Shown here piece by piece: positions 8,295-42,184 of a stretch of 64,000 bases of DNA. The number at the start of each line of letters is the position of its first letter. Within the stretch, counting starts at the first letter, position 1. A program made the position numbers and the translations under genes. The notes under the pieces were generated by a model. The model was not told the DNA's origin. It was given only the letters and a program-made list of their open reading frames with translations, and made no database searches. This DNA comes from a virus, in IMG/VR virus record IMGVR_UViG_3300027826_000001; one strand, written 5' to 3'.

Positions 8295-8372
8295 TGGATG
8301 CGGGGGCCGCGATTTGAACGGGCGATCTCTAGGTCATGGGCCTAGTGAGTTACCAGACTTCTCCACCCCGCA
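8295..8372 (-). tRNA. tRNA-Met-like (anticodon CAU), initiator-like, CCA encoded, atypical T-stem
   Basis: Minus strand UGCGGGGUGGAGAAGUCUGGUAACUCACUAGGCCCAUGACCUAGAGAUCGCCCGUUCAAAUCGCGGCCCCCGCAUCCA. It has a 7-bp acceptor stem, anticodon stem CUAGG/CCUAG, loop CCCAUGA, and T-loop UUCAAAU. The T-stem pairs only if one C is bulged. Confidence 0.65.
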
Positions 8373-8393
8373 ATACTATTATACCGTGGAAGG

Positions 8394-8465
8394 CTGTGGA
8401 GGTAGGAATCGAACCTACATATTACTGATTAACAGTCAGTTCCATTACCGTTATGGTACCCCACA
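8394..8465 (-). tRNA. tRNA-Asn (anticodon GUU)
   Basis: Minus strand folds as UGUGGGG-UA-CCAU-AACGGUA-AUGG-A-ACUGA-CUGUUAA-UCAGU-AAUAU-GUAGG-UUCGAUU-CCUAC-CUCCACA-G. This is a clean cloverleaf. Confidence 0.85.
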
Positions 8466-9654: not shown

Positions 9655-9828
9655 CTAAGAAAAAGTCAAGTATTTTTTCTTAATACTTTCCAACCATTTA
9701 TCATACTTAGCGGTGTCAAAAGTACCGTCTAAAGTAATGAAAACAGGAGGTTTATTCTTAACCGGCGTCATGTCTGCGTTAAAACACCAATTATCCAAGT
9801 AGTAATTATAGAAAGAAAAGTCTTCCAT
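9655..9828 (-). CDS. hypothetical protein (57 aa)
   Basis: I prefer ATG 9828 (MEDFSFYNYY...), which shares one base with the upstream TAA (9830..9828). Confidence 0.55.
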   Translation of the reverse strand: MEDFSFYNYYLDNWCFNADMTPVKNKPPVFITLDGTFDTAKYDKWLESIKKKYLTFS

Positions 9829-28559: not shown

Positions 28560-29567
28560 TTAGTAACGTCTGGCACGTCTCTTACGTTTTTTCCCCGGTA
28601 CATATTTGGGGACATACGGTACATATTTGGGGACATATGGTACTGATTCGACTTTGGGCGTTTCGAGCTTAGACTCTGGGGGAAGGTTAATGACAATGCC
28701 AAGCTTGGCTAGTTCCTTCACAATCCACTCTTGAGCCGCACGTGGATTATTCCATTGACAGTCCCCCCACATTGCTGAACCAAGGTAAACATCATAACCA
28801 CGGGTAGCTAATGTTTCGGGGAATGGGTCTGAAGGATAACCGTACATGGAGGTAGGATAAACAGTATACTTTTGTAATAGATCCTTGGACGGTAGAGTTT
28901 CAAACCAAGCAAACCCGTGACGGCGAAACATACTGGAATGGGCCAAAGCGTAGGATAAACGGTCAAGGTCGAAGTCTTGATTAAAGTGTTTCACTTCGAC
29001 AGTACACAGGATGCGGTCACCCGTGTAATTGTAATTTACTCCTATCATCACCAGAACGTCTATTTGGGTACGGATTCCCATGTAGTCTAAAAGACGGGAA
29101 AGGGCCAATATACAAGCGCCACGGGCCGTCATAGTCTCGGTTGAGATACCACAAGAGGCTGAAAGATTAACACCAATTTTGGCCGTAGTCTTACCATTCA
29201 CTATGACAGTTTCAGACTCGCCCATTGCAAGCCAGTGTTCTGGTTCGCCCTCATGCCAGCGTCCGACATCCAAGTTAATACCCTCGGTTAAGTATTGAGG
29301 TTCGGGTTTACCTGCATACTGAGAGATAAAGCTAAAGAGAGACGTAGCAAGATCGTTTATTTTGTCCTTACCCTCGGGCCATCCGTTATGCGCTAGTTCA
29401 CATGCTTTAGGCCATGTTGCAGCATGGAGGTTACCATAACCTGATGATGTATCACGACTACGAGAGTCACTTGCACGTTTACCCTCGGGTATTAGACAAG
29501 GTGCGTTTTCACAATGGTCTAGGAACGCGTGCCAATCGGTAAAGGTTTGCTCGTAGTCGTATTTCAT
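28560..29567 (-). CDS. partner of the AAA+ ATPase (335 aa); possibly a degenerate VWA/CobT-like fold; repeat-containing basic tail
   Basis: ATGA-coupled to the ATPase gene. IGVNLSASCGIS sits where a MIDAS DxSxS would lie. The C-terminus is VPYVPKYVPYVPKYVPGKKRKRRARRY. Confidence 0.6.
   Translation of the reverse strand: MKYDYEQTFTDWHAFLDHCENAPCLIPEGKRASDSRSRDTSSGYGNLHAATWPKACELAHNGWPEGKDKINDLATSLFSFISQYAGKPEPQYLTEGINLDVGRWHEGEPEHWLAMGESETVIVNGKTTAKIGVNLSASCGISTETMTARGACILALSRLLDYMGIRTQIDVLVMIGVNYNYTGDRILCTVEVKHFNQDFDLDRLSYALAHSSMFRRHGFAWFETLPSKDLLQKYTVYPTSMYGYPSDPFPETLATRGYDVYLGSAMWGDCQWNNPRAAQEWIVKELAKLGIVINLPPESKLETPKVESVPYVPKYVPYVPKYVPGKKRKRRARRY
28597..28643. repeat. 21-bp tandem repeat (2.2 copies), each copy starting GGTAC
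   Basis: GGTACATATTTGGGGACATAC / GGTACATATTTGGGGACATAT / GGTAC. Encodes the VPYVPKY repeats on the minus strand. Confidence 0.9.
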
Positions 29568-30958
29568 GCGGCTGTAACCTCCATTTCAGACTTCGGAGTA
29601 ACCTTTACTCTCATAGTCTTACGGCATGAGTCTAGGGAAGCAAGTGGGAATTGGGTTAACAGCTTTTCACGGGTAGACTTGTCAAGTCCCTTGAAAACAC
29701 ATGCATCGGCCACAAGGGTAGCGGAGAGATCCGTATAGCCTAGAAGTTTTGCGCCGTCATAGGTGGCTCGGGGTGTAGCGAATACTTTACCATGCTTTCC
29801 AGACATAGCCTCAGGCCGAATGCCTTGCACCCATTGAATCCACGGGGTACAGTTGGGATTAATACTCAGCGCTACCCCTTGCTCAAGGTTCTGATCGTAT
29901 TCGACATGGAAAAACTTGGCGCGGTCCATTGTGGGGAACTCTTGCGCTACAGCTTCGGGGAAATATTCGTCACGGCCACGCATAGAAGTGTTTCCTGCCA
30001 TAAGAACGTAGGATTCAGAGTGACGGGAGATTGGGTGTTCATGGCCACGAGCATCAATGTAACCGTTAGCTAAGAACCCATTTAGCAAGGTGGTAATGTG
30101 AGACGGCCACCTGTCGAATTCATCGAAGAAAATAAGTGAAGGACGTTGGACAGCATTAATGAACCGTTGCTCTTGTTTCCCGCCGTTACCGTCAATAAAA
30201 CCTTTTAAAACAGACTCGGGAGACATTTTACCGATTTGAAATGGGTGGAACTCCAAGCCTAGTAAGTCTGCTATTTGACGGGCCATAAAAGTCTTACCCG
30301 CACCCGCTGCACCATAGATATAAACGTTTTGGGCCACTAGCAGCATTTCAGCGATGGTCGGAACGTCCTTATGGACTAGGCCTTCAAGCTTACGTGTGGT
30401 GTCCGGGGTAACGAATTCGATACGAGATTCCTTAACACTATGCTTGCGAACTAGGTCGATAACCCGTGTTTCGTCAATGGATTGGACGTTTAAAGCGGAC
30501 ATAGCAGCGGAAACGGCCTGATCCACTTTAGCGTCAAGGTTCTCAAGAGATTGAATCTTAGAAGCCAAGGGGCCTAACATTACGTTTGCTAGCGCTTGGA
30601 TGGCCGTAGTTGCTTCAGAGGGTGACGGAATAGGTTCGGGTATGGGTGTGGGTTTGGGTGTGTCTACAGGCATGTACACATCGTCCTTTGGCGGGGTAAA
30701 CGGGTTCGGCTCTGGTAATGGAGTTTCATTATCCTCTGACGGTTCTGGTTCACCCTGAATCAAATATTCGCCAGAGGGTAATGTACCAGTATAGTAAGAA
30801 TCGAAGTCTCTCTGATCGTCCCAACATTTAGGGTGATAGGAACGTCCTTTACCCCTAGAGTCATTACACCAGATTATCTTGGAACCAAGATTTACAGGTA
30901 ACCCGCACTTTTTACAGCGAGTATGAGGATACTTTGAGTTGAATGCTTTGACGATCAT
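29564..30958 (-). CDS. AAA+ ATPase (MoxR/CobS/AAA_5-like) with N-terminal zinc ribbon and Pro-rich linker
   Basis: Walker A YGAAGAGKTF and Walker B LIFFDEFDR. N-terminal CKKCGLP...HPKC. PEPNPFTPPKDD...PKPTPIPEPIPSP linker. Confidence 0.8.
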   Translation of the reverse strand: MIVKAFNSKYPHTRCKKCGLPVNLGSKIIWCNDSRGKGRSYHPKCWDDQRDFDSYYTGTLPSGEYLIQGEPEPSEDNETPLPEPNPFTPPKDDVYMPVDTPKPTPIPEPIPSPSEATTAIQALANVMLGPLASKIQSLENLDAKVDQAVSAAMSALNVQSIDETRVIDLVRKHSVKESRIEFVTPDTTRKLEGLVHKDVPTIAEMLLVAQNVYIYGAAGAGKTFMARQIADLLGLEFHPFQIGKMSPESVLKGFIDGNGGKQEQRFINAVQRPSLIFFDEFDRWPSHITTLLNGFLANGYIDARGHEHPISRHSESYVLMAGNTSMRGRDEYFPEAVAQEFPTMDRAKFFHVEYDQNLEQGVALSINPNCTPWIQWVQGIRPEAMSGKHGKVFATPRATYDGAKLLGYTDLSATLVADACVFKGLDKSTREKLLTQFPLASLDSCRKTMRVKVTPKSEMEVTAA

Positions 30959-32817: not shown

Positions 32818-34149
32818 TTAAAGTTCCTTAATATCTTGTGGGTCACTTTCCGCCGTCTCAATATCTACCGTCCCTTTGTCCAACTGATCGGACTCGTATT
32901 TAAGGAACGCAAAGTTTTTAATCTTGAAGGGTTCGCAGGAATATAGTTTATCAGCTTTCACTACTACACCTTCTGCGGGGACTTCGTTATTATTGAAAAT
33001 ACAGGGTAAATCGCCAAGATATTCCTTTTCCACGTCTTGCAGGAAATCACTTTGCCAGTCCTGTATTAAACCCGGCTTTGTAGTACAGAATTTACTAGCC
33101 TTTCCATAATAGTGCTCAACCACCGTATGCAAGCCCCATTTTTCACAAGCTTCTTTAATTTGGGGCCAAGAGTATTCTGTTACTTGTCCATCAGTATCCG
33201 TATGGGTAATACGATATACAATAAACAAGTGACTACCCTTTTCACAACCATAATGATAACCCGGTTGAATAGGACTTCCCTCCGGGGTATAGCCCACTAT
33301 CTCGCCGTACACAGTAACGCCTTTAGGCAGGACAGGGAAAACTTCCTTTCCCACGATACCCCAAATATCTGAGGGGTAGAAATGTACTGCGGTATGACGT
33401 TCCTCTTGGGCTATACCCTTTACGACACGTCGGGAGGACCATATATACTCGTAACAAGTATCTTGAATACGGACGCCTACTAGCTTTAGCAACTTTTCGA
33501 ACCAAGATAGCGGACGCTTACACAGGACGTTTGCGTAGACAGCGGATGTCCCATGCCATTTGTCAGTAATACTAATGATATCCCATGGGTTAATACGGTG
33601 TACGTTTTTCCGAAGTTGCTCCGTGTCTACATGGAAATGGAACTGTCCGTCTACAATACGATCTTCAATACGGGGAGCTTTACGACCCTGCTTATCACGC
33701 GTGGAAGCGGGATTATGGGCCGGTACGTACTTACGGCATATCTCATGGTCCCCCAGGGTATCGAATTCACTTCCTAGGGGCAGTTCTCCAATATTAAGAT
33801 AGCTTAATGCATCCTGGGGTATCCAGAAACCTTCTGACTTGTGGCCGCGAAACTTGACCGCCTTAACACGTCTGGATTGTTCAAAGAAACCACCACGGGC
33901 AAGTGGGTCTACATTTCCCCATTCGGCCTTACGATAGAGATTGTTATGGGATACAAATTCGTGGGATAATTGGCATTCAAGGGGAAAGTAAAGACCGATG
34001 TCTCCGGGTTGACATTCTTTCCCTACTATGATATGATTACCCTGCACTATGGCACCCTTGACGTTATCGCAATTAGGCAGGGTTACAAATTTGTCCAATG
34101 CTACCACCGTGGCACAGTAGTTTGGGTTTTTTGGGGCGGCTAGTTTCAT
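32818..34149 (-). CDS. ATP-dependent RNA ligase (Rnl2/Rnl5-like, DRB0094-type N-terminal module)
   Basis: Nucleotidyltransferase motifs I DKWHGTS, III VYGEIVGY, IV EGVVVK, V FKIKN. OB-like N-terminus (VVALDKF...GDIGLYFP). I prefer ATG 34149 because the ORF-track GTG 34173 lies inside the promoter spacer. Confidence 0.75.
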   Translation of the reverse strand: MKLAAPKNPNYCATVVALDKFVTLPNCDNVKGAIVQGNHIIVGKECQPGDIGLYFPLECQLSHEFVSHNNLYRKAEWGNVDPLARGGFFEQSRRVKAVKFRGHKSEGFWIPQDALSYLNIGELPLGSEFDTLGDHEICRKYVPAHNPASTRDKQGRKAPRIEDRIVDGQFHFHVDTEQLRKNVHRINPWDIISITDKWHGTSAVYANVLCKRPLSWFEKLLKLVGVRIQDTCYEYIWSSRRVVKGIAQEERHTAVHFYPSDIWGIVGKEVFPVLPKGVTVYGEIVGYTPEGSPIQPGYHYGCEKGSHLFIVYRITHTDTDGQVTEYSWPQIKEACEKWGLHTVVEHYYGKASKFCTTKPGLIQDWQSDFLQDVEKEYLGDLPCIFNNNEVPAEGVVVKADKLYSCEPFKIKNFAFLKYESDQLDKGTVDIETAESDPQDIKEL

Positions 34150-34163
34150 AATGCTATGAGGAT

Positions 34164-34192
34164 AGCGTAACACAGGTGAGATAGATTGTCAA
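34164..34192 (-). promoter_or_regulatory. consensus promoter of the RNA ligase gene
   Basis: Minus strand TTGACA 34192..34187, 17-nt spacer, TGt-TACGCT 34172..34164. 14 nt to the ATG, so the leader is very short. Confidence 0.7.
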
Positions 34193-34198
34193 GACCTT

Positions 34199-34216
34199 TT
34201 GTTCAGGTTGTTCAGG
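34199..34216. repeat. tandem 9-bp repeat TTGTTCAGG x2 between divergent promoters (operator candidate)
   Basis: Copies at 34199-34207 and 34208-34216 are identical. Confidence 0.8.
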
Positions 34217-34249
34217 ACCTAGTGTTAAAAATTCTTAATACAATTCTTG

Positions 34250-34278
34250 TTGACAATCCATGCCTCTTGTGTTAGTCT
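34250..34278 (+). promoter_or_regulatory. consensus promoter of the main plus-strand operon
   Basis: TTGACA 34250-55, 17-nt spacer, TGt-TAGTCT 34270-78. Confidence 0.7.
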
Positions 34279-34306
34279 TAATTTAAGCTTGAAAGGCGAA
34301 CGAGGA

Positions 34307-34522
34307 TTGGGATCAATAAAGGCGAAATACCTATACAAGGCCTTGTTACGTAATGGGTGGGCCGTAGATGGACAAACGGGTTCGCATGTAAAGTTTGTTT
34401 CTAGTAACCCCGCTTCGCCACGCAAACACTTTACCCTGTGTTTTCAGAAGGGCGTAGAAGTAGGGCCTAAGATGCTGGCAAGGATACTTAAGGATACAGG
34501 ACTACGATACGAGGATCTATGA
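34307..34522 (+). CDS. hicA: HicA-family mRNA interferase (toxin-type RNase)
   Basis: ...YLYKALLRNGWAVDGQTGSHVKFV...GPKMLARILKDTGL matches the HicA dsRBD-like pattern with the GSH histidine. The ORF-track start 34247 lies in the promoter, so the real start is TTG 34307 or 34289. Confidence 0.7.
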   Translation: MGSIKAKYLYKALLRNGWAVDGQTGSHVKFVSSNPASPRKHFTLCFQKGVEVGPKMLARILKDTGLRYEDL

Positions 34523-34737
34523 TTACGAATAAAGGTGACTGGACTCCAGAACTTTTACACTTGACACAAGCTGTCGTTAATGGTATAACTAAACTTCGTC
34601 ATGTGACAGAGGATCTTAAGACGGCGGAACAGGAATGGGATGACCCACAAACTTTTATGTTTTTCCTGAAACGGGCGCATAATGACGTGGTGGAAGTTAT
34701 TGATACCCTAAGGCTTACTGTGAAGGGAAGAATATGA
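34519..34737 (+). CDS. 72-aa acidic helical protein, ATGA-coupled to hicA (not HicB-like)
   Basis: ORF track. No RNaseH-like beta N-terminus and no RHH/HTH are recognisable. Confidence 0.7.
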   Translation: MITNKGDWTPELLHLTQAVVNGITKLRHVTEDLKTAEQEWDDPQTFMFFLKRAHNDVVEVIDTLRLTVKGRI

Positions 34738-35363
34738 AGTTATATAAATTGACTACACAAGACGGTAAAACACGTCCTGGTCAAAGTAATGAAACACAAT
34801 GGGGCGAAGGTGTAACTCATACGGCTAAAGGGACTGGTGGATTGTGTACGGACGGAGTTATTCATGCCTATACGTCCCCGTTACTGGCTGTTCTATTAAA
34901 CCCTTCTCATGCAAATATTAAAGACCCTATCTTATGGGAAGCAAAAGGGAAGATTGTCAAATCCGAACCCTGTAAGTGCGGAGTTAAAACACTTACTACT
35001 ATTCGACAGATTCCATTACCTGAAATTTCTACAGAACAAAAAATACGCTTTGCAATTGGATGTGCATTAACTTTTTATAAAAATTCTAAGTTTAAAATTT
35101 GGGCTTTAAATTGGTTAGCTAATATTGATAGAAGCTATACTGCTGCTAATGCTGCTTATGCTGCTGCTAAGGCTGCTAATGCTGCTAATGCTGCTGTTAA
35201 TGCTGCTTATGATGCTGCTAAGGCTGTTAATGCTGCTTATGCTGATGTTAATGCTGCTTATGCTGCTGCTAATGCTGCTAATGCTGCTGCTCGTGCTTCT
35301 CATTTTATTAATCTATTAAAAATTGCAGAATGGGCCATGACGGAGGAACCCTGGAATGAATAA
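34734..35363 (+). CDS. protein with globular N-domain and Ala/Asn-rich tandem-repeat helix (209 aa)
   Basis: AANAAYAAAKAANAANAAVNAAYDAAKAVNAAYADVNAAYAAANAANAAARA. ATGA coupling at both ends. Confidence 0.8.
   Translation: MKLYKLTTQDGKTRPGQSNETQWGEGVTHTAKGTGGLCTDGVIHAYTSPLLAVLLNPSHANIKDPILWEAKGKIVKSEPCKCGVKTLTTIRQIPLPEISTEQKIRFAIGCALTFYKNSKFKIWALNWLANIDRSYTAANAAYAAAKAANAANAAVNAAYDAAKAVNAAYADVNAAYAAANAANAAARASHFINLLKIAEWAMTEEPWNE
35142..35297 (+). repeat. imperfect GCT-GCT-AAT/TAT/AAG 9-12-nt tandem repeat array
   Basis: Visible directly in the DNA. It also generates the SSISS and LLMLL shadow ORFs in other frames. Confidence 0.9.
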
Positions 35364-35604
35364 TCAACGTAGATGTAAATGGTGTGGACGGTGGATGTCA
35401 AAGTGGCATAAAGAGGCTAATTTTTATCTATGTCCTAATTGTTTTGCCGAACCTGCGGGTATGAGTACGAACGATGATTATAGACGCGAAGCCCATAGGG
35501 ACAGACTTGAAAAGTACTTTGCATGGGTAGGTACCGGGCTACTATGTACTATTGCGTGGTTGAGTATTCTGTGGTATGCTTTTAGCTACTTTGGAAGGCA
35601 CTAA
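35356..35604 (+). CDS. zinc-ribbon plus C-terminal TM protein (82 aa)
   Basis: CKWCGRW...CPNC, then GTGLLCTIAWLSILWYAFSYFG. Confidence 0.7.
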   Translation: MNNQRRCKWCGRWMSKWHKEANFYLCPNCFAEPAGMSTNDDYRREAHRDRLEKYFAWVGTGLLCTIAWLSILWYAFSYFGRH

Positions 35605-35739
35605 ATGGTCGTGGTAATAGCGTTATGGCTGTGCGTAACTCGTCGTTTACCGCAGTTACTACGTACTGTAAGCTATCTGACACTTTGTAAGTTCGCGGTG
35701 TGGTTGTTAGTGATCGTTATTAAGAAAGGAACCTTATGA
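35605..35739 (+). CDS. 44-aa two-helix hydrophobic microprotein
   Basis: TAA-ATG abutting the upstream gene and ATGA overlap downstream. MVVVIALWLCVTRRLPQLLRTVSYLTLCKFAVWLLVIVIKKGTL. Confidence 0.45.
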   Translation: MVVVIALWLCVTRRLPQLLRTVSYLTLCKFAVWLLVIVIKKGTL

Positions 35740-36073
35740 AACGCTTGGATAAGATGCAAGACGGTGACGTAATGATTTTTGATCTCAAGTGCGGCGCACA
35801 TGTTGAGATTAAACGCCATACAGGAAAAAGGGATACAAAGACCCATTCAATCTGTATAAAAAGGGATACGAAATTTATATCAAAGATCCATTGCTTTTTG
35901 CTATTACAAAGACTTTTGATAACAAAGACAACTGGAGTTTTGAGCAAGGACATTATAATTCAAAAGAACTTAAGTTCTATATTTGGGACGATGCGATTGA
36001 TTTTTTAATTCGATTGCTAGCCCCGGTGGCAAAGGCACGTAGTAAGAAAGGAAAGAAAAATGCTAAAAGTTAG
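35736..36073 (+). CDS. gene requiring a -1 shift at an A5 run (35825-35829) to give a ~112-aa product
   Basis: Frame 0 is protein-like only up to ...EIKRHTGK. The -1 frame opens at 35813, has no start codon, and reads KGYKDPFNLYKKGYEIYIKDPLLFAITKTFDNKDNWSFEQGHY...KKNAKS. Confidence 0.55.
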
Positions 36074-36200
36074 TATTGATCGTAGTAAGTGGGCGGTGTA
36101 TCCGAATAAGCGGGCCTTAGTCGCGTTAGCAAGTTTTCTTTTTACAAGTTTTTCTTTTCTGGTGGGGACCGGGTTGGGAAGGCTGGTAAGAAGAGTTTGA
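36060..36200 (+). CDS. 46-aa hydrophobic microprotein
   Basis: ATG 36060 after AAAGGAAAG. MLKVSIDRSKWAVYPNKRALVALASFLFTSFSFLVGTGLGRLVRRV. Confidence 0.4.
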   Translation: MLKVSIDRSKWAVYPNKRALVALASFLFTSFSFLVGTGLGRLVRRV

Positions 36201-36310
36201 AAAGGATAGGGTTAATGGGGTTTTTAACACTAGGTCACAAAAACAATAGGACCTGTTAGAACCCAAACTATCCTTTTCTAAACTATAAGTTATTGATAAT
36301 AAAGGAGTTA

Positions 36311-36454
36311 ATGGTAAGGATGGAAACTACTAAGGAAACATGCCCGTACTGTGGGAGTGATGATTTGTATTGGGATAACGTGAGTATTGCTTGTAGGTTT
36401 GCTTCCTTATTTTGCCGGAAGTGTGAACGGTATATTAGGGAGTTTAACGTATGA
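36311..36454 (+). CDS. 47-aa zinc-ribbon microprotein
   Basis: AAAGGAG 4 nt before the ATG. CPYCGS...CRKC. Confidence 0.55.
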   Translation: MVRMETTKETCPYCGSDDLYWDNVSIACRFASLFCRKCERYIREFNV

Positions 36455-36505
36455 ACGAAAGCAGTAAGGGCATTAAACTTAACACATTACCGGGAGAATA
36501 CTAAT

Positions 36506-36708
36506 ATGGAAATTGAAGTTCATGAACCCCGTAGTATATATGAGAAAGACTATCACTGCGAGATGTGCGGTAAGTATGTCAAAAAGACCAAAATGACGTA
36601 TAAAGAGTATCAGGTTCATAAAAACATTCCCATTGTCCAGTATGTGAGCCAAAGTTTAAGGAAAGAATAAAGGAACATAAAGAAAATTTCAAGAAAATGT
36701 GGATATAA
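36506..36708 (+). CDS. zinc-finger microprotein needing a -1 shift at an A5 run (36620-36624)
   Basis: Frame 0 carries CEMC but then ends in poor sequence at 36670. The -1 frame continues HSHCPVCEPKFKERIKEHKENFKKMWI to 36708, completing a CxxC...CxxC pair. Confidence 0.5.
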
Positions 36709-36710
36709 CT

Positions 36711-37154
36711 ATGTGCCTAGATACTATTACGCGTCGTATCGAAGAACAAGACGTAACAGACGAAGTTGTAAAAGTTAGGAAATATTTTATTCGATATAGT
36801 AACGATGAAGATTGGTACGGTTCAGTATGTGGAACTTATCGTTATCCACAACAATTTAACGTATGGATTAAAGCCTCTGATATTAAAGTGAATACTAAAA
36901 CTTTAGCAACTTTAGCTTCTCAGAGGATTTCTTCTGTCTTAGTTGCAAACTGTCCTTCAAATCCGTTAGGCGGTTGGAAAGATGATTTATATCCGGCAGG
37001 ATTTCATGGATACCCAGGAGACTTACCCGAGTTCCGACCATATGGCTGTTTCCTTGTTACAGTGGAGTTTCGAAAGGTCCATACTTATGGGACGCAAGAA
37101 GGGGTACCTGTGATAGTGGCACATGAAATGCGAATAACCAGGGAGGATAAGTAA
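36711..37154 (+). CDS. hypothetical protein (148 aa), paralog of the next gene
   Basis: In frame with ORF-track 36699..37154. Shares GFHG/GFHA and the C-terminal ...G.Q.G...IVA..M.I pattern with 37156..37530. Confidence 0.7.
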   Translation: MCLDTITRRIEEQDVTDEVVKVRKYFIRYSNDEDWYGSVCGTYRYPQQFNVWIKASDIKVNTKTLATLASQRISSVLVANCPSNPLGGWKDDLYPAGFHGYPGDLPEFRPYGCFLVTVEFRKVHTYGTQEGVPVIVAHEMRITREDK

Positions 37155-37155
37155 T

Positions 37156-37530
37156 ATGTGCATGAATAAAGTGACTAATACCTTTGACCCGCCCCTGACC
37201 CATGAGGTTAAGGCTTGGAAGGTACTTTATAAAAACGAGGATAATGGTAAATACTATTCCGAATTTAGAAGACATATGCACCCAAATGGGTTTAAGCCTA
37301 ATAGATGGTATGTAAATAAGGGTAGTAAACCTATTTACACATATGATAGTTCCTATCCAATAGGTTTTCACGCGTTTACTACAAAGAAGGGTGCTGAGAA
37401 TTGGGCATTTAGTGACATGTATGTAGTACCCGTACTGTTAACTAACATTGTGGCCCGTGGTAGGCAAGATGGGCACATATGTATCGTGGCTCGTAAGATG
37501 AAAATCCTAGAAAAGAAGAAAGGTAAATAA
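37156..37530 (+). CDS. hypothetical protein (124 aa), paralog of the previous gene
   Basis: ORF track. Confidence 0.75.
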   Translation: MCMNKVTNTFDPPLTHEVKAWKVLYKNEDNGKYYSEFRRHMHPNGFKPNRWYVNKGSKPIYTYDSSYPIGFHAFTTKKGAENWAFSDMYVVPVLLTNIVARGRQDGHICIVARKMKILEKKKGK

Positions 37531-37543
37531 AGGAACCCGGCGT

Positions 37544-38431
37544 ATGAAACTATACATGACTAAAGGACTTCCAGGGTCCGGTAAAACTACTTGGGCGCGG
37601 GATATGATGAAAGTTAATGATTCGATTAAGCGGGTTAATAAAGACGATATTCGGGCTATGATTGGTAAGACTCGGGAAAATGTGGTCTTAGATATTCGAA
37701 ACGATATCATTTGTCAGCTTATGAAAGCAAATTATAGCGTTATCGTAGACGATACTAACTTTAATCCTATTCATGAACTAAAACTCAAAGAAATAGCTAG
37801 TATTTTCGGGGCTGAGTTTGAAATTAAGGACCTTACCCACGTCACTTTGGAAGAATGTATTGCTAATGACCGTAAGAGATTGGGTACATTAGGCCACGTT
37901 GGAGAGAAGGTTATTCGAGACATGCATAAGAAGTACCTAAGTAAATATCCGTTTCAAAAAGAGGCGCTTATTTATCCTGAACCCCCGGCTTATAACCCTA
38001 CCTTACCGGACTGCATTATAGTAGATATTGACGGTACTGTGGCAACTATGAACGGACGTGGACCCTATGACTGGGATAAAGTAGATACAGACTTGCCCCG
38101 TAAAGAAGTATTAAAAATTATCAAGAGTGTAAAACTGGGAAGTGGAGCAGAGGTTATTTTTGTAAGTGGCCGGGATGGGTCTTGTAGGCGTAAAACTATC
38201 TATTGGCTTCAGAGTAATTTTGATTGGTCGCCTTTTCACCTATATATGCGAGAAGCCGGAGACATGAGACGAGATAGCGTGGTCAAGCGGGAAATATATG
38301 ATACGCATATTAAGGGCCATTATAACGTCATAGCTATTTTTGATGACAGGCCCCAGGTAATACGTGAATGTTGGTATGCACTGGGCTATCGGGATAGAGT
38401 GTTTAATGTTGGGGATATGAAGGAATTTTAA
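37544..38431 (+). CDS. bifunctional polynucleotide 5'-kinase/3'-phosphatase (T4 Pnkp-like)
   Basis: N-terminal P-loop GLPGSGKTT. C-terminal HAD motif IVDIDGTVA plus VSGRD and FDDR. Domain order and size match T4 Pnkp. Confidence 0.8.
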   Translation: MKLYMTKGLPGSGKTTWARDMMKVNDSIKRVNKDDIRAMIGKTRENVVLDIRNDIICQLMKANYSVIVDDTNFNPIHELKLKEIASIFGAEFEIKDLTHVTLEECIANDRKRLGTLGHVGEKVIRDMHKKYLSKYPFQKEALIYPEPPAYNPTLPDCIIVDIDGTVATMNGRGPYDWDKVDTDLPRKEVLKIIKSVKLGSGAEVIFVSGRDGSCRRKTIYWLQSNFDWSPFHLYMREAGDMRRDSVVKREIYDTHIKGHYNVIAIFDDRPQVIRECWYALGYRDRVFNVGDMKEF

Positions 38432-41118: not shown

Positions 41119-41591
41119 TTACGGACTTTAAAGGAACCGCTTTGGAGGGGGGACCCACTAGTTCCATTCGTCAAATCGAAGCCCCACGTATTGTAGTCCC
41201 TGAGTTCAAGATACATTTAAACTCATTCCGTATCTTGACTAGGGAAATGAGGGGTTGGCCGGGGAAGAAGCTACGTTTTACCATTACGTGGCGTGTTGAC
41301 ATACCTCCGGTTAACCCCGAGTTAGGGGACAGGGCCGAGGAATTGGGGATGGATATTGAAGGGTGTTTGGCGCGAGTAACTACTAACGGGGAATTGGTTT
41401 GGTGTACGCCACAGGCTAGAAATGGACATTATTACGCGAATATCGTGTGGGCGTCACCGGATCTTTATAAACGTGTACAAAGGGCTATAGCCGGAAGTAA
41501 ATACGTGAAATTAATATATACTCCGCACCCTAGTCCTAGTATCGATCCAAAGACCCTAGATCCAGATATTCCTGCGGAGATAGAAGCGTAA
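41115..41591 (+). CDS. hypothetical protein (158 aa)
   Basis: ORF track. GTGA overlap with the upstream stop. Confidence 0.7.
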   Translation: MITDFKGTALEGGPTSSIRQIEAPRIVVPEFKIHLNSFRILTREMRGWPGKKLRFTITWRVDIPPVNPELGDRAEELGMDIEGCLARVTTNGELVWCTPQARNGHYYANIVWASPDLYKRVQRAIAGSKYVKLIYTPHPSPSIDPKTLDPDIPAEIEA

Positions 41592-42184
41592 TGGCTAATA
41601 CTTGGATTATATCCGATACCCACTTTGGACATTCAAATATTATCGAGTATTGTAAGCGCCCTTTCAAAGACGCCGATCATATGGATGCGGTAATGATTAA
41701 GCGTTGGCAGGCACGAGTTAGACCGTGGGATACTGTTTATCACCTAGGGGATGTGATGTTAACGGCTCGTAAGACTGATGAAGAGTTACGACAGTTTATA
41801 GATCAACTACCGGGTAAGAAGATTCTGATATTGGGTAACCATGATAAATCTGCGGAAAGAATGATGGATTTTGGTTTTACCCATGCGGTCGAAAGTGCCG
41901 TGGTTTCAGTACCGGGTTTTAGTGGAATGCGGGTGGTTCTGAATCATTACCCTTTAACCTTTAAGCCTCTATCGTTTAGCCGCGACGGAATACCCCCTGA
42001 CTATGTGTTGCATGGACACATACACAATTCGACGGAGGAAATGAGGCGGGAAATTCATGAAAAGAATGAACTTGTTCACATACCATCGTTTAACATAAAC
42101 TGCTGTGTTGAAATGTGGAATTACGAACCTTGTACGATTCAGCATATTATTAAAAAACATAAATATTTTGAAAAGGGCCTATGA
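41591..42184 (+). CDS. calcineurin-like metallophosphoesterase
   Basis: ISDTHFGH, HLGDV, LGNHD, LHGHIHN. Confidence 0.8.
   Translation: MANTWIISDTHFGHSNIIEYCKRPFKDADHMDAVMIKRWQARVRPWDTVYHLGDVMLTARKTDEELRQFIDQLPGKKILILGNHDKSAERMMDFGFTHAVESAVVSVPGFSGMRVVLNHYPLTFKPLSFSRDGIPPDYVLHGHIHNSTEEMRREIHEKNELVHIPSFNINCCVEMWNYEPCTIQHIIKKHKYFEKGL

Follow-up and report, generated by a model that had tools for sequence, protein, structure and literature searches.

What does it mean for a phage to carry, at one locus, a gene for a toxin-type RNase and genes for the repair of broken RNA? The question is raised by positions 32,818 to 38,431 of a 64,000-nucleotide (nt) stretch of viral DNA (IMG/VR record IMGVR_UViG_3300027826_000001; hereafter, the window), where an ATP-dependent RNA ligase, a HicA-family protein, and a T4-type polynucleotide 5′-kinase/3′-phosphatase (Pnkp) are encoded around a pair of diverging promoters. 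A preliminary description, made from the letters of the sequence, read these genes as a nuclease and RNA-repair enzymes under shared control. Our analysis supports that interpretation in part: the three genes are real, and their joint working is unproven. We tentatively favor an account in which a standard repair pair shares the locus with an independently captured, antitoxin-less RNase lying behind a host-type promoter, the most plausible of the explanations considered here without being one that we hold firmly. The features on which the argument turns are as follows.

32818..34149, minus strand: ATP-dependent RNA ligase, 443 amino acids (aa); first gene of the leftward unit; N-terminal OB-like module and nucleotidyltransferase domain.
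34164..34192, minus strand: P_L, sigma70-type promoter; TTGACA, 17-bp spacer, TGTG extended −10, TACGCT.
34250..34278, plus strand: P_R, sigma70-type promoter heading the rightward operon; TTGACA, 17-bp spacer, TGTG extended −10, TAGTCT.
34307..34522, plus strand: HicA-family protein, 71 aa, with a TTG start; opens the rightward operon; motif GSHVKF.
37544..38431, plus strand: T4-type Pnkp, 295 aa; motifs GLPGSGKTT and DIDGTV; both active sites intact.

Identity of the three genes and absence of HicB

The small protein at the head of the rightward operon is a member of the HicA family by sequence, fold, and catalytic histidine. It matches Pfam HicA_toxin (PF07927; E = 5.6e-11, 42.8 bits against a curated cutoff of 27), and its AlphaFold2 model (predicted local distance difference test [pLDDT] score of 87.5) has the alpha-beta-beta-beta-alpha, dsRBD-like topology. 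When the model was searched against the PDB, the top five matches were all HicA structures (template modeling [TM] scores of 0.62 to 0.78; 1WHZ, TM = 0.78). The catalytic-site residues G25-S26-H27 are retained; profile alignment places H27 with H24 of B. pseudomallei HicA (chain 4C26 is the H24A mutant) and with H28 of Y. pestis HicA3, and the GSH histidine is conserved in 60 of 62 members of the subfamily. The protein is a candidate translation-independent, toxic RNase.

The relatives of the window HicA are short bacterial proteins (63 representatives at E <= 1e-3 in a library of 1.84 billion proteins), encoded at 591 or more loci in GTDB genomes of many phyla, and the closest are chromosomal HicA toxins with no more than 55% identity. 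A HicB-like (UPF0150-type) gene adjoins hicA at 77 of 80 sampled loci of these relatives and lies upstream at 75; in the window, the hicB position is occupied by P_R. No HicB was found in the six-frame translation of the window with a hidden Markov model (HMM) built from the 77 cognate HicBs (best E = 1.5), nor by phmmer with two HicB seeds, and no HicB family was present among 107 window open reading frames (ORFs) searched against Pfam (78 small and 29 large). Bacterial type II hicBA/hicAB modules resemble the window gene in family sequence, fold, and catalytic histidine; unlike them, the window HicA has no adjacent cognate HicB, is part of a phage operon, and is not under an autoregulated toxin-antitoxin promoter. 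Among phages, tblastn of the window HicA against 50,697 phage records gave no match, and IMG/VR held no relatives. The best reading of these sequence comparisons is that a bacterial hicBA toxin was captured without its HicB antitoxin in a lineage-specific event.

The ligase ORF extends over 32818-34173 (minus strand), and we place the true start at the ATG at 34149, in agreement with the N termini of homologues. A longer form starting at GTG 34173 was rejected because that codon lies inside P_L and the homologues begin at the position of ATG 34149. The motifs KWHGTS, VYGEIVGY, EGVVVK, and FKIKN are read in the sequence. Across 30 homologues, K197-x-H-G (motif I), E283, E393-G394, and K409-x-K411 are invariant, and motifs I (K197-W-H-G), III/IIIa (Y281-G-E283), IV (E393-G394-VVVK), and V (K409-I-K411), which mark the covalent nucleotidyltransferase superfamily, are invariant or nearly so throughout. 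The protein matches Pfam RNA_ligase (PF09414; E = 4.4e-8, 33.9 bits, cutoff of 27) and phrog_968 (E = 5.4e-61); it is 33% identical to the RNA ligase of mycobacteriophage Cjw1 and 42% identical to gp24 of Synechococcus phage B3. Against the PDB, a profile of the 30 sequences aligned residues 255-417, in the catalytic domain, with T4 Rnl2 (2HVQ, E = 9.5e-8) and residues 12-119 with the N-terminal OB domain of NgrRnl (5COT, E = 5e-5), and the label “Rnl2/Rnl5-type” given to the ligase from its motifs therefore fits. Rnl5-specific models fall under their cutoffs (PF21189, 22 bits against 27; TIGR02306 RNA_lig_DRB0094, a partial match of 28 bits against 151), and we therefore term the apparent architecture, an N-terminal OB module before an Rnl2-like catalytic core, Rnl5-like and assign no clade membership. 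A PHA02142 OB match in Pfam was likewise subthreshold. The Rnl5 ligases of Naegleria gruberi (NgrRnl) and Deinococcus radiodurans (DraRnl), which seal 3′-OH/5′-phosphate nicks in duplex RNA, have an N-terminal OB-like module before the nucleotidyltransferase domain and neither a C-terminal OB nor an Rnl2-type C-domain; the window ligase appears to share the N-terminal module. In contrast to them, the window ligase is about 100 aa longer, and its catalytic domain scores better against T4 Rnl2.

Pnkp matches Pfam HAD_PNKP (E = 3e-39, 134.8 bits, cutoff of 27.6) and AAA_33 (E = 4.9e-14) as well as phrog_505 (E = 4.3e-82), and it aligns over its full length with T4 Pnkp (1LTQ, E = 4.8e-35) and also with bacterial Pnkp1 (4XRP, E = 2.6e-28). 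In the N-terminal kinase domain, the GSGKT P-loop, the DD-x-R motif, and the arginine equivalent to R126 are kept relative to 1LTQ (T4 K15, S16, D35, R38, and R126); in the C-terminal 3′-phosphatase domain, a DxDxT acylphosphatase, DIDGT, GRGPYD, SGR, and DDR align with T4 D165/D167, R176, R213, and D277/D278. Profile and structure searches of the three proteins thus bear out the families proposed in the preliminary description (Rnl2/Rnl5-type ligase, HicA, and T4-Pnkp-like enzyme), and every sequence feature listed there, whether motif, ORF, repeat, or promoter pair, was found where it had been placed.

The genome in which these genes lie encodes a portal and adaptor of the SU10 type, a GP4-type fiber, a family A DNA polymerase, and ATPases of the helicase type; among the window ORFs, integrase and repressor families were not detected. 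The phage is probably a virulent SU10/GP4-like podophage, and a plasmid- or prophage-style addiction role for the toxin is therefore unlikely. The window derives from a 66,987-bp contig of a Logan assembly, SRR5579871. The phage collection contained no near-identical or similar DNA, and a search for the same layout in relatives led only to one IMG/VR ligase locus (L001) and to Synechococcus phage B3, neither of which is syntenic with the window. Each gene being of a known family, what sets the locus apart is that a HicA without its antitoxin leads an operon close behind a promoter, beside repair genes, in an apparently virulent phage.

Promoters and the proposed shared control

Two consensus promoters facing away from each other had been proposed to place the nuclease and the repair genes under shared control. 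Both sites and their TTGACA boxes are real (34192-34187, minus strand, and 34250-34255, plus strand, 57 nt apart), whereas the −10 hexamers are not consensus, with TACGCT and TAGTCT each matching at only three of six positions; for this reason a generic promoter scan was silent at both. We rejected the conclusion that no promoter is present because the extended motif is strongly enriched: TTGACA-N12-TGTGTTA with two or fewer mismatches occurs 10 times in the window against 1.8 expected, a number reached by none of 100 shuffles. P_L and P_R have TTGACAATCYAT-N6-TGTGTTA in common and together form a 25-nt inverted repeat (80% complementary). The consensus of the class is TTGACA, a 17-bp spacer, a TRTG-T extended −10, and TAnnCT, the extended −10 being recognized by sequence match, and seven good copies lie at 9669 (minus), 12619 (minus), 34192 (minus), 34250 (plus), 46056 (plus), 51392 (plus), and 56419 (minus). 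Because the window contains at least seven copies, at least five of them away from this locus, the control exerted by P_L and P_R appears to be generic host sigma70 control used genome-wide and not specific to the three genes. The proposal of shared control is not supported in this sense.

The gene order itself is as first described. The rightward operon begins with HicA and its GSHVKF motif, and Pnkp lies about 3 kb downstream in the same operon, with no convincing terminator in between. On the other side, the ligase mRNA is predicted to start from P_L with a leader of about 8 nt and no Shine-Dalgarno sequence, which would make it nearly leaderless; farther along the leftward unit are genes for an AAA_5 (MoxR/CobS-like) ATPase and then a DUF7192 protein (28560-30958, minus strand). 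Between the two promoters lies one more feature.

34199..34216, no strand: exact tandem 9-mer TTGTTCAGG x2, 7 nt upstream of the −35 element of P_L and 34 nt upstream of that of P_R.

The tandem repeat is exact, as had been claimed. Apart from the two copies here, the unit TTGTTCAGG does not recur exactly anywhere in the window, and single-mismatch copies show no excess (13 against 14.6 expected); a regulator site and a slippage duplication are both possible. Searches with Rfam identified only two tRNAs in the window and nothing credible at 34100-36700. The genes for these tRNAs, tRNA-Met(CAT) and tRNA-Asn(GTT), lie at 8295-8465 (minus strand), downstream of the promoter of the same class at 9669 (minus strand). 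That a phage should bring tRNAs as well as RNA-repair genes would be in keeping with a contest over tRNA between phage and host.

HicA and the repair pair in other phages

To ask how often the three genes travel together, we scanned metagenome contigs by alignment for relatives of the ligase (343 found) and examined 80 fetched loci. A T4-type Pnkp was present at 27 of these, always on the same strand as the ligase, within 300 bp in 12 cases and within 1.5 kb in 22; where at least 3 kb was available on both sides, the fraction was 13 of 30. The two genes are also adjacent or near each other in Cjw1 (gp88, gp92), Gordonia phage Rabbitrun (gp82, gp84), and Microbacterium phage Fork (gp77, gp76). 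Given this distribution, Pnkp and a ligase of this family appear to form a widespread, well-conserved phage module, one that is already known. The window pair is an atypical instance in which the partner is present but not adjacent: the genes are 3.4 kb apart, on opposite strands, and split by the divergent promoters.

HicA does not belong to this recurrent arrangement. It was detected at none of the 80 ligase loci by tblastn, by the subfamily HMM, by phmmer using the mycobacteriophage type, or by Pfam on the 148 small ORFs nearest the ligase or Pnkp, with the caveat that a HicA as divergent as the mycobacteriophage (cluster L) type escapes Pfam at E = 0.01. When the 519 small ORFs of the 80 loci were clustered, no cluster exceeded four members, none was HicA-like by hhalign, and no conserved small-ORF family stood beside the ligase. 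Nor was HicA found in the ligase phages that were sampled, namely, Cjw1, Baka, Rabbitrun, Fork, and B3. The idea of HicA as a regular partner of the repair enzymes is thus not sustained by their relatives; because HicA is missing from all 80 loci and from every other sampled ligase phage, the repair pair seems to work without it almost everywhere.

In the account that we favor, Pnkp and the ligase would mend breaks in structured RNA by healing and then sealing the ends; the likeliest substrates would be tRNAs cleaved by anticodon nucleases of the host or by other defenses that target RNA. The repair logic invoked in the preliminary description is established: T4 Pnkp and Rnl1 repair tRNA cut by the host anticodon nuclease PrrC, and both genes are delayed early (PMC3014915). 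The window resembles T4 in pairing a T4-type bifunctional Pnkp with a phage ATP-dependent RNA ligase; it differs in that the ligase is not Rnl1 and in that the nuclease-type gene is phage encoded, whereas in T4 the nuclease is a host enzyme. The bacterial Pnkp-Hen1 and Pnkp1-Rnl-Hen1 systems likewise heal and seal ribotoxin-cut RNA, but the architecture of the window ligase is different, and Pfam identified no Hen1 methyltransferase among the 107 window ORFs. A phage Pnkp with an RNA ligase is the textbook reply to tRNA-cutting host defenses, and new members of the pair mainly extend the catalogue.

The same account assigns HicA a separate role. Placed first behind P_R, where the host RNA polymerase would transcribe it, and with no antidote, it would most likely serve as an endoribonuclease, unneutralized and independent of translation, that acts on the mRNA of host and/or phage early in infection, functionally like T4 RegB. 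The RegB fold is RelE/YoeB-like and not that of HicA. RegB is an early phage RNase with a toxin-type fold that leaves 5′-OH ends on which T4 Pnkp then acts, the kinase and the phosphatase function of polynucleotide kinase (PNK) turning mRNAs cut by RegB into better RNase E/G and PNPase substrates (PMC3014915). Apart from RegB with PNK, no case is known to be documented in which a phage RNase and a phage Pnkp are functionally linked, and the outcome of that link in T4 is faster decay, in which ligase takes no part; if HicA were coupled to Pnkp, the precedent would point to decay rather than repair. Neither this precedent for decay nor the loss of the cognate HicB figured in the preliminary description. 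If its RNase is active, HicA would be a case of a phage using a toxin of a toxin-antitoxin system as a weapon of host takeover.

The preliminary description knew of no earlier account of the three-part arrangement. That holds only in part: cluster L mycobacteriophages carry a Pnkp, an orphan HicA-like gene, and a ligase of the same family within about 5 kb, and a 2026 paper covers all three (LeBron gp74, gp82, and gp85) but proposes no connection among them (PMC13148394). In LeBron, Pnkp (gp74), an orphan HicA-like protein (gp82), and an RNA ligase of the window ligase's family (gp85) are encoded in one operon within 5.6 kb (L013, 5753-11385); gp84, between the HicA-like and ligase genes, encodes a YAcAr/SLOG-family protein. 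The HicA-like gene is kept at 76 to 98% identity in about 93 cluster L genomes, and the cluster L ligases are about 32 to 33% identical to that of the window. Cluster L and the window thus have in common the ligase family, a T4-type Pnkp, and an antitoxin-less HicA-like gene near the ligase. They differ in that the cluster L phages are temperate siphoviruses of actinobacteria, that their three genes are codirectional, and that their HicA-like proteins form a different, very divergent subfamily.

How far gp82 can be called a HicA bears directly on the value of this parallel. It retains a GGNH histidine, and its only relevant match is to PF07927, below threshold (E = 0.024; 0.02 to 0.08 across the cluster L proteins). 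Comparison with the window HicA gave no BLAST similarity, hhalign against the window subfamily gave a probability of 3%, and a PDB sequence search was negative. The assignment, which we regard as weak, rests on published and SEA-PHAGES annotation and is not confirmed by our own profile searches. If gp82 and the window HicA are both true HicAs, they were acquired independently. When overexpressed, gp82, which is without a cognate antitoxin, was nontoxic, and gp74 and gp85 were toxic (PMC13148394).

Several observations weigh against a HicA that is active and independent of the repair pair. The window HicA begins just 157 bp from the ligase start. In cluster L, the orphan HicA-like gene lies 0 to 0.7 kb upstream of a ligase of the same family; in DuncansLeg (gp76, gp85, and gp86; L180, 3237-8299) the two genes have 4 nt in common at the start of the ligase, with Pnkp about 2.6 kb upstream. 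That a HicA-type gene adjoins one ligase family in lineages that are unrelated to each other points to a possible functional connection, which the account that we favor treats as coincidence; the parallel amounts to two events, one of them found by searching for exactly this combination. Because the LeBron orphan is nontoxic, orphan phage HicAs may not be potent RNases. Within the window HicA itself, residues conserved in the subfamily are replaced (K21D, R22G, H47Q, and D48K), the TTG start has poor Shine-Dalgarno spacing, and the ORF was missed by the gene caller of the source assembly. Finally, the gene that follows, ORF72, could encode an unrecognized antitoxin.

The linkage observations bear on a functional triad, in which the phage Pnkp, and perhaps the ligase too, would act on the ends made by HicA. 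This could take the form of (a) cutting, healing, and sealing, in which cleavage is programmed and the RNAs that are needed are selectively resealed or RNA is rejoined, or (b) a licensing of decay of the RegB/PNK type, in which Pnkp would phosphorylate 5′-OH ends and strip 3′-phosphates, host RNase E/G/J and PNPase would degrade the cut mRNAs, and the ligase would separately repair tRNA. We consider such a triad unlikely, if the most substantial of the competing explanations. The proximity of HicA to the ligase and its place in one operon with Pnkp speak for it, as do the recurrence of the trio in an unrelated lineage, whose HicA-like gene is kept across about 93 genomes, the lack of HicB in both lineages, and the action of T4 Pnkp, through both of its activities, on products of the toxin-fold nuclease RegB (PMC3014915). 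These points are set against the absence of HicA from all 80 ligase loci and from the other sampled ligase phages, and against the character of the cluster L case, which represents a single evolutionary event and a nontoxic gene product that falls short of the HicA_toxin threshold. The promoters are generic, and a review leaves open which ends HicA cleavage makes (PMC5408214), a point that the preliminary description itself treated as an assumption. “Self-repair” of mRNA is moreover mechanistically hard because the ligase cannot distinguish phage from host mRNA fragments. A broader form of the same idea is that phages have at least twice, in the SU10-like podophage and in cluster L, recruited an antitoxin-less HicA to a Pnkp/Rnl5-like ligase module as a break-heal-seal or break-and-decay system, the repair enzymes limiting or redirecting the damage done by the toxin; this, too, we judge improbable. 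Were HicA nevertheless to feed the repair enzymes, the locus would encode a viral pathway for cutting and processing RNA in which a toxin is controlled enzymatically and not by a protein antitoxin.

The HicA reading frame, ORF72, and neighboring genes

The substitutions in the window HicA bear on two further explanations. Relative to the subfamily consensus, the protein departs at W1, P2, K21 (D), R22 (G), H47Q, and D48K and has four extra loop residues. It is possible to read these changes as the mark of a protein that is no longer a nuclease and has become an RNA-binding accessory that guides or regulates Pnkp and the ligase when they act on certain RNAs: HicA proteins fold like a dsRBD, the window protein no longer has basic and acidic residues that its subfamily conserves, and the cluster L orphan is nontoxic and translationally coupled to the ligase. 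We think this quite unlikely, for the window protein still has the catalytic histidine of its GSH motif and LeBron gp82 a GGNH histidine, and most ligase/Pnkp modules have no such partner. The loss of the second conserved histidine (H47Q) is no argument for inactivity because Y. pestis HicA3, which is active, lacks that residue as well.

If the HicA ORF were what is left of a fragment gained by horizontal transfer, decaying and no longer expressed, this would account for the same substitutions together with the TTG start, its poor Shine-Dalgarno spacing, and the silence of the assembly's gene finder. Yet the ORF is uninterrupted and full length at the size of the family (70 to 71 aa), its model shows the HicA fold with confidence, and GSH is intact; it lies directly behind a strong predicted promoter and is coupled to the next gene, and dead DNA is rarely retained by phage genomes. 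This explanation is very improbable.

The coupling to the next gene raises the question of a partner for HicA.

34519..34737, plus strand: ORF72, 72 aa; start overlaps the HicA stop (ATGA).

ORF72 matches no family and shows no similarity to any antitoxin; PADLOC defense models run on eight proteins of the region, ORF72 among them, likewise gave no match. In a search of 5.8 billion proteins it matched only itself, and it has no IMG/VR relative. A single-sequence AlphaFold2 model is a two-helix hairpin (helices at residues 10-38 and 43-68; pLDDT 88.8). Judging from the model, the protein does not look HicB-like, and it is the sole candidate for a noncanonical antitoxin or other partner of HicA. 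Its designation as an antitoxin was tried and set aside, there being no family and no homologue and the helical-hairpin model being uninformative.

HicA and ORF72 might nonetheless form a new toxin-antitoxin pair in which the helical hairpin replaces HicB, serving superinfection exclusion, phage competition, or timed toxin release and unrelated to RNA repair. The ATGA overlap is the usual operon coupling of toxin and antitoxin, and a small protein that folds with confidence and has been seen in this phage only, as ORF72 has, is what a recently recruited partner would look like. The overlap loses weight from the frequency of 4-nt start-stop overlaps in this operon (ORF72/ORF209 and ORF209/ORF82), and ORF72 has neither homology or structural resemblance to an antitoxin nor a DNA-binding motif. 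There is also no sign of lysogeny, and hence nothing to addict. We regard the pair as doubtful, to much the same degree as the RNA-binding accessory, and continue to favor an unneutralized HicA beside a standard repair pair.

ORF209 (34734-35363, plus strand) follows. Its N-terminal domain (residues 1-134) recurs in seven IMG/VR contigs, twice in tandem in L006, and these contigs have nothing else in common with the window; its C-terminal half is an Ala/Asn-rich repeat encoded by a 51-nt tandem array of 2.9 copies (35140-35288). Beyond it is a segment of about 700 bp without a called gene (35604-36290), in which Rfam found no match and in which ORFs 35736-36008 and 35891-36073 resemble one gene frameshifted near 35890, possibly through assembly error, a programmed shift, or decay. 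The two genes directly 5′ of Pnkp (151 aa and 124 aa; 36699-37530, plus strand) match no family and are weak paralogues of each other, with a common C-terminal segment bearing YP-x-GFH (E = 5e-5). One gene downstream of Pnkp may belong with it.

41591..42184, plus strand: metallophosphoesterase (Metallophos_2), 197 aa; Pfam E = 5.7e-10.

Homologues of this protein occur at 6 of the 80 ligase loci and stand directly beside Pnkp at two of them (L092 and L044). It may be a third, accessory end-healing enzyme, for example, a cyclic phosphodiesterase, although its membership in the set is tentative. Rabbitrun also carries a nucleotidyl transferase, and the gene content of Rabbitrun and LeBron suggests a larger RNA-maintenance gene set in these phages.

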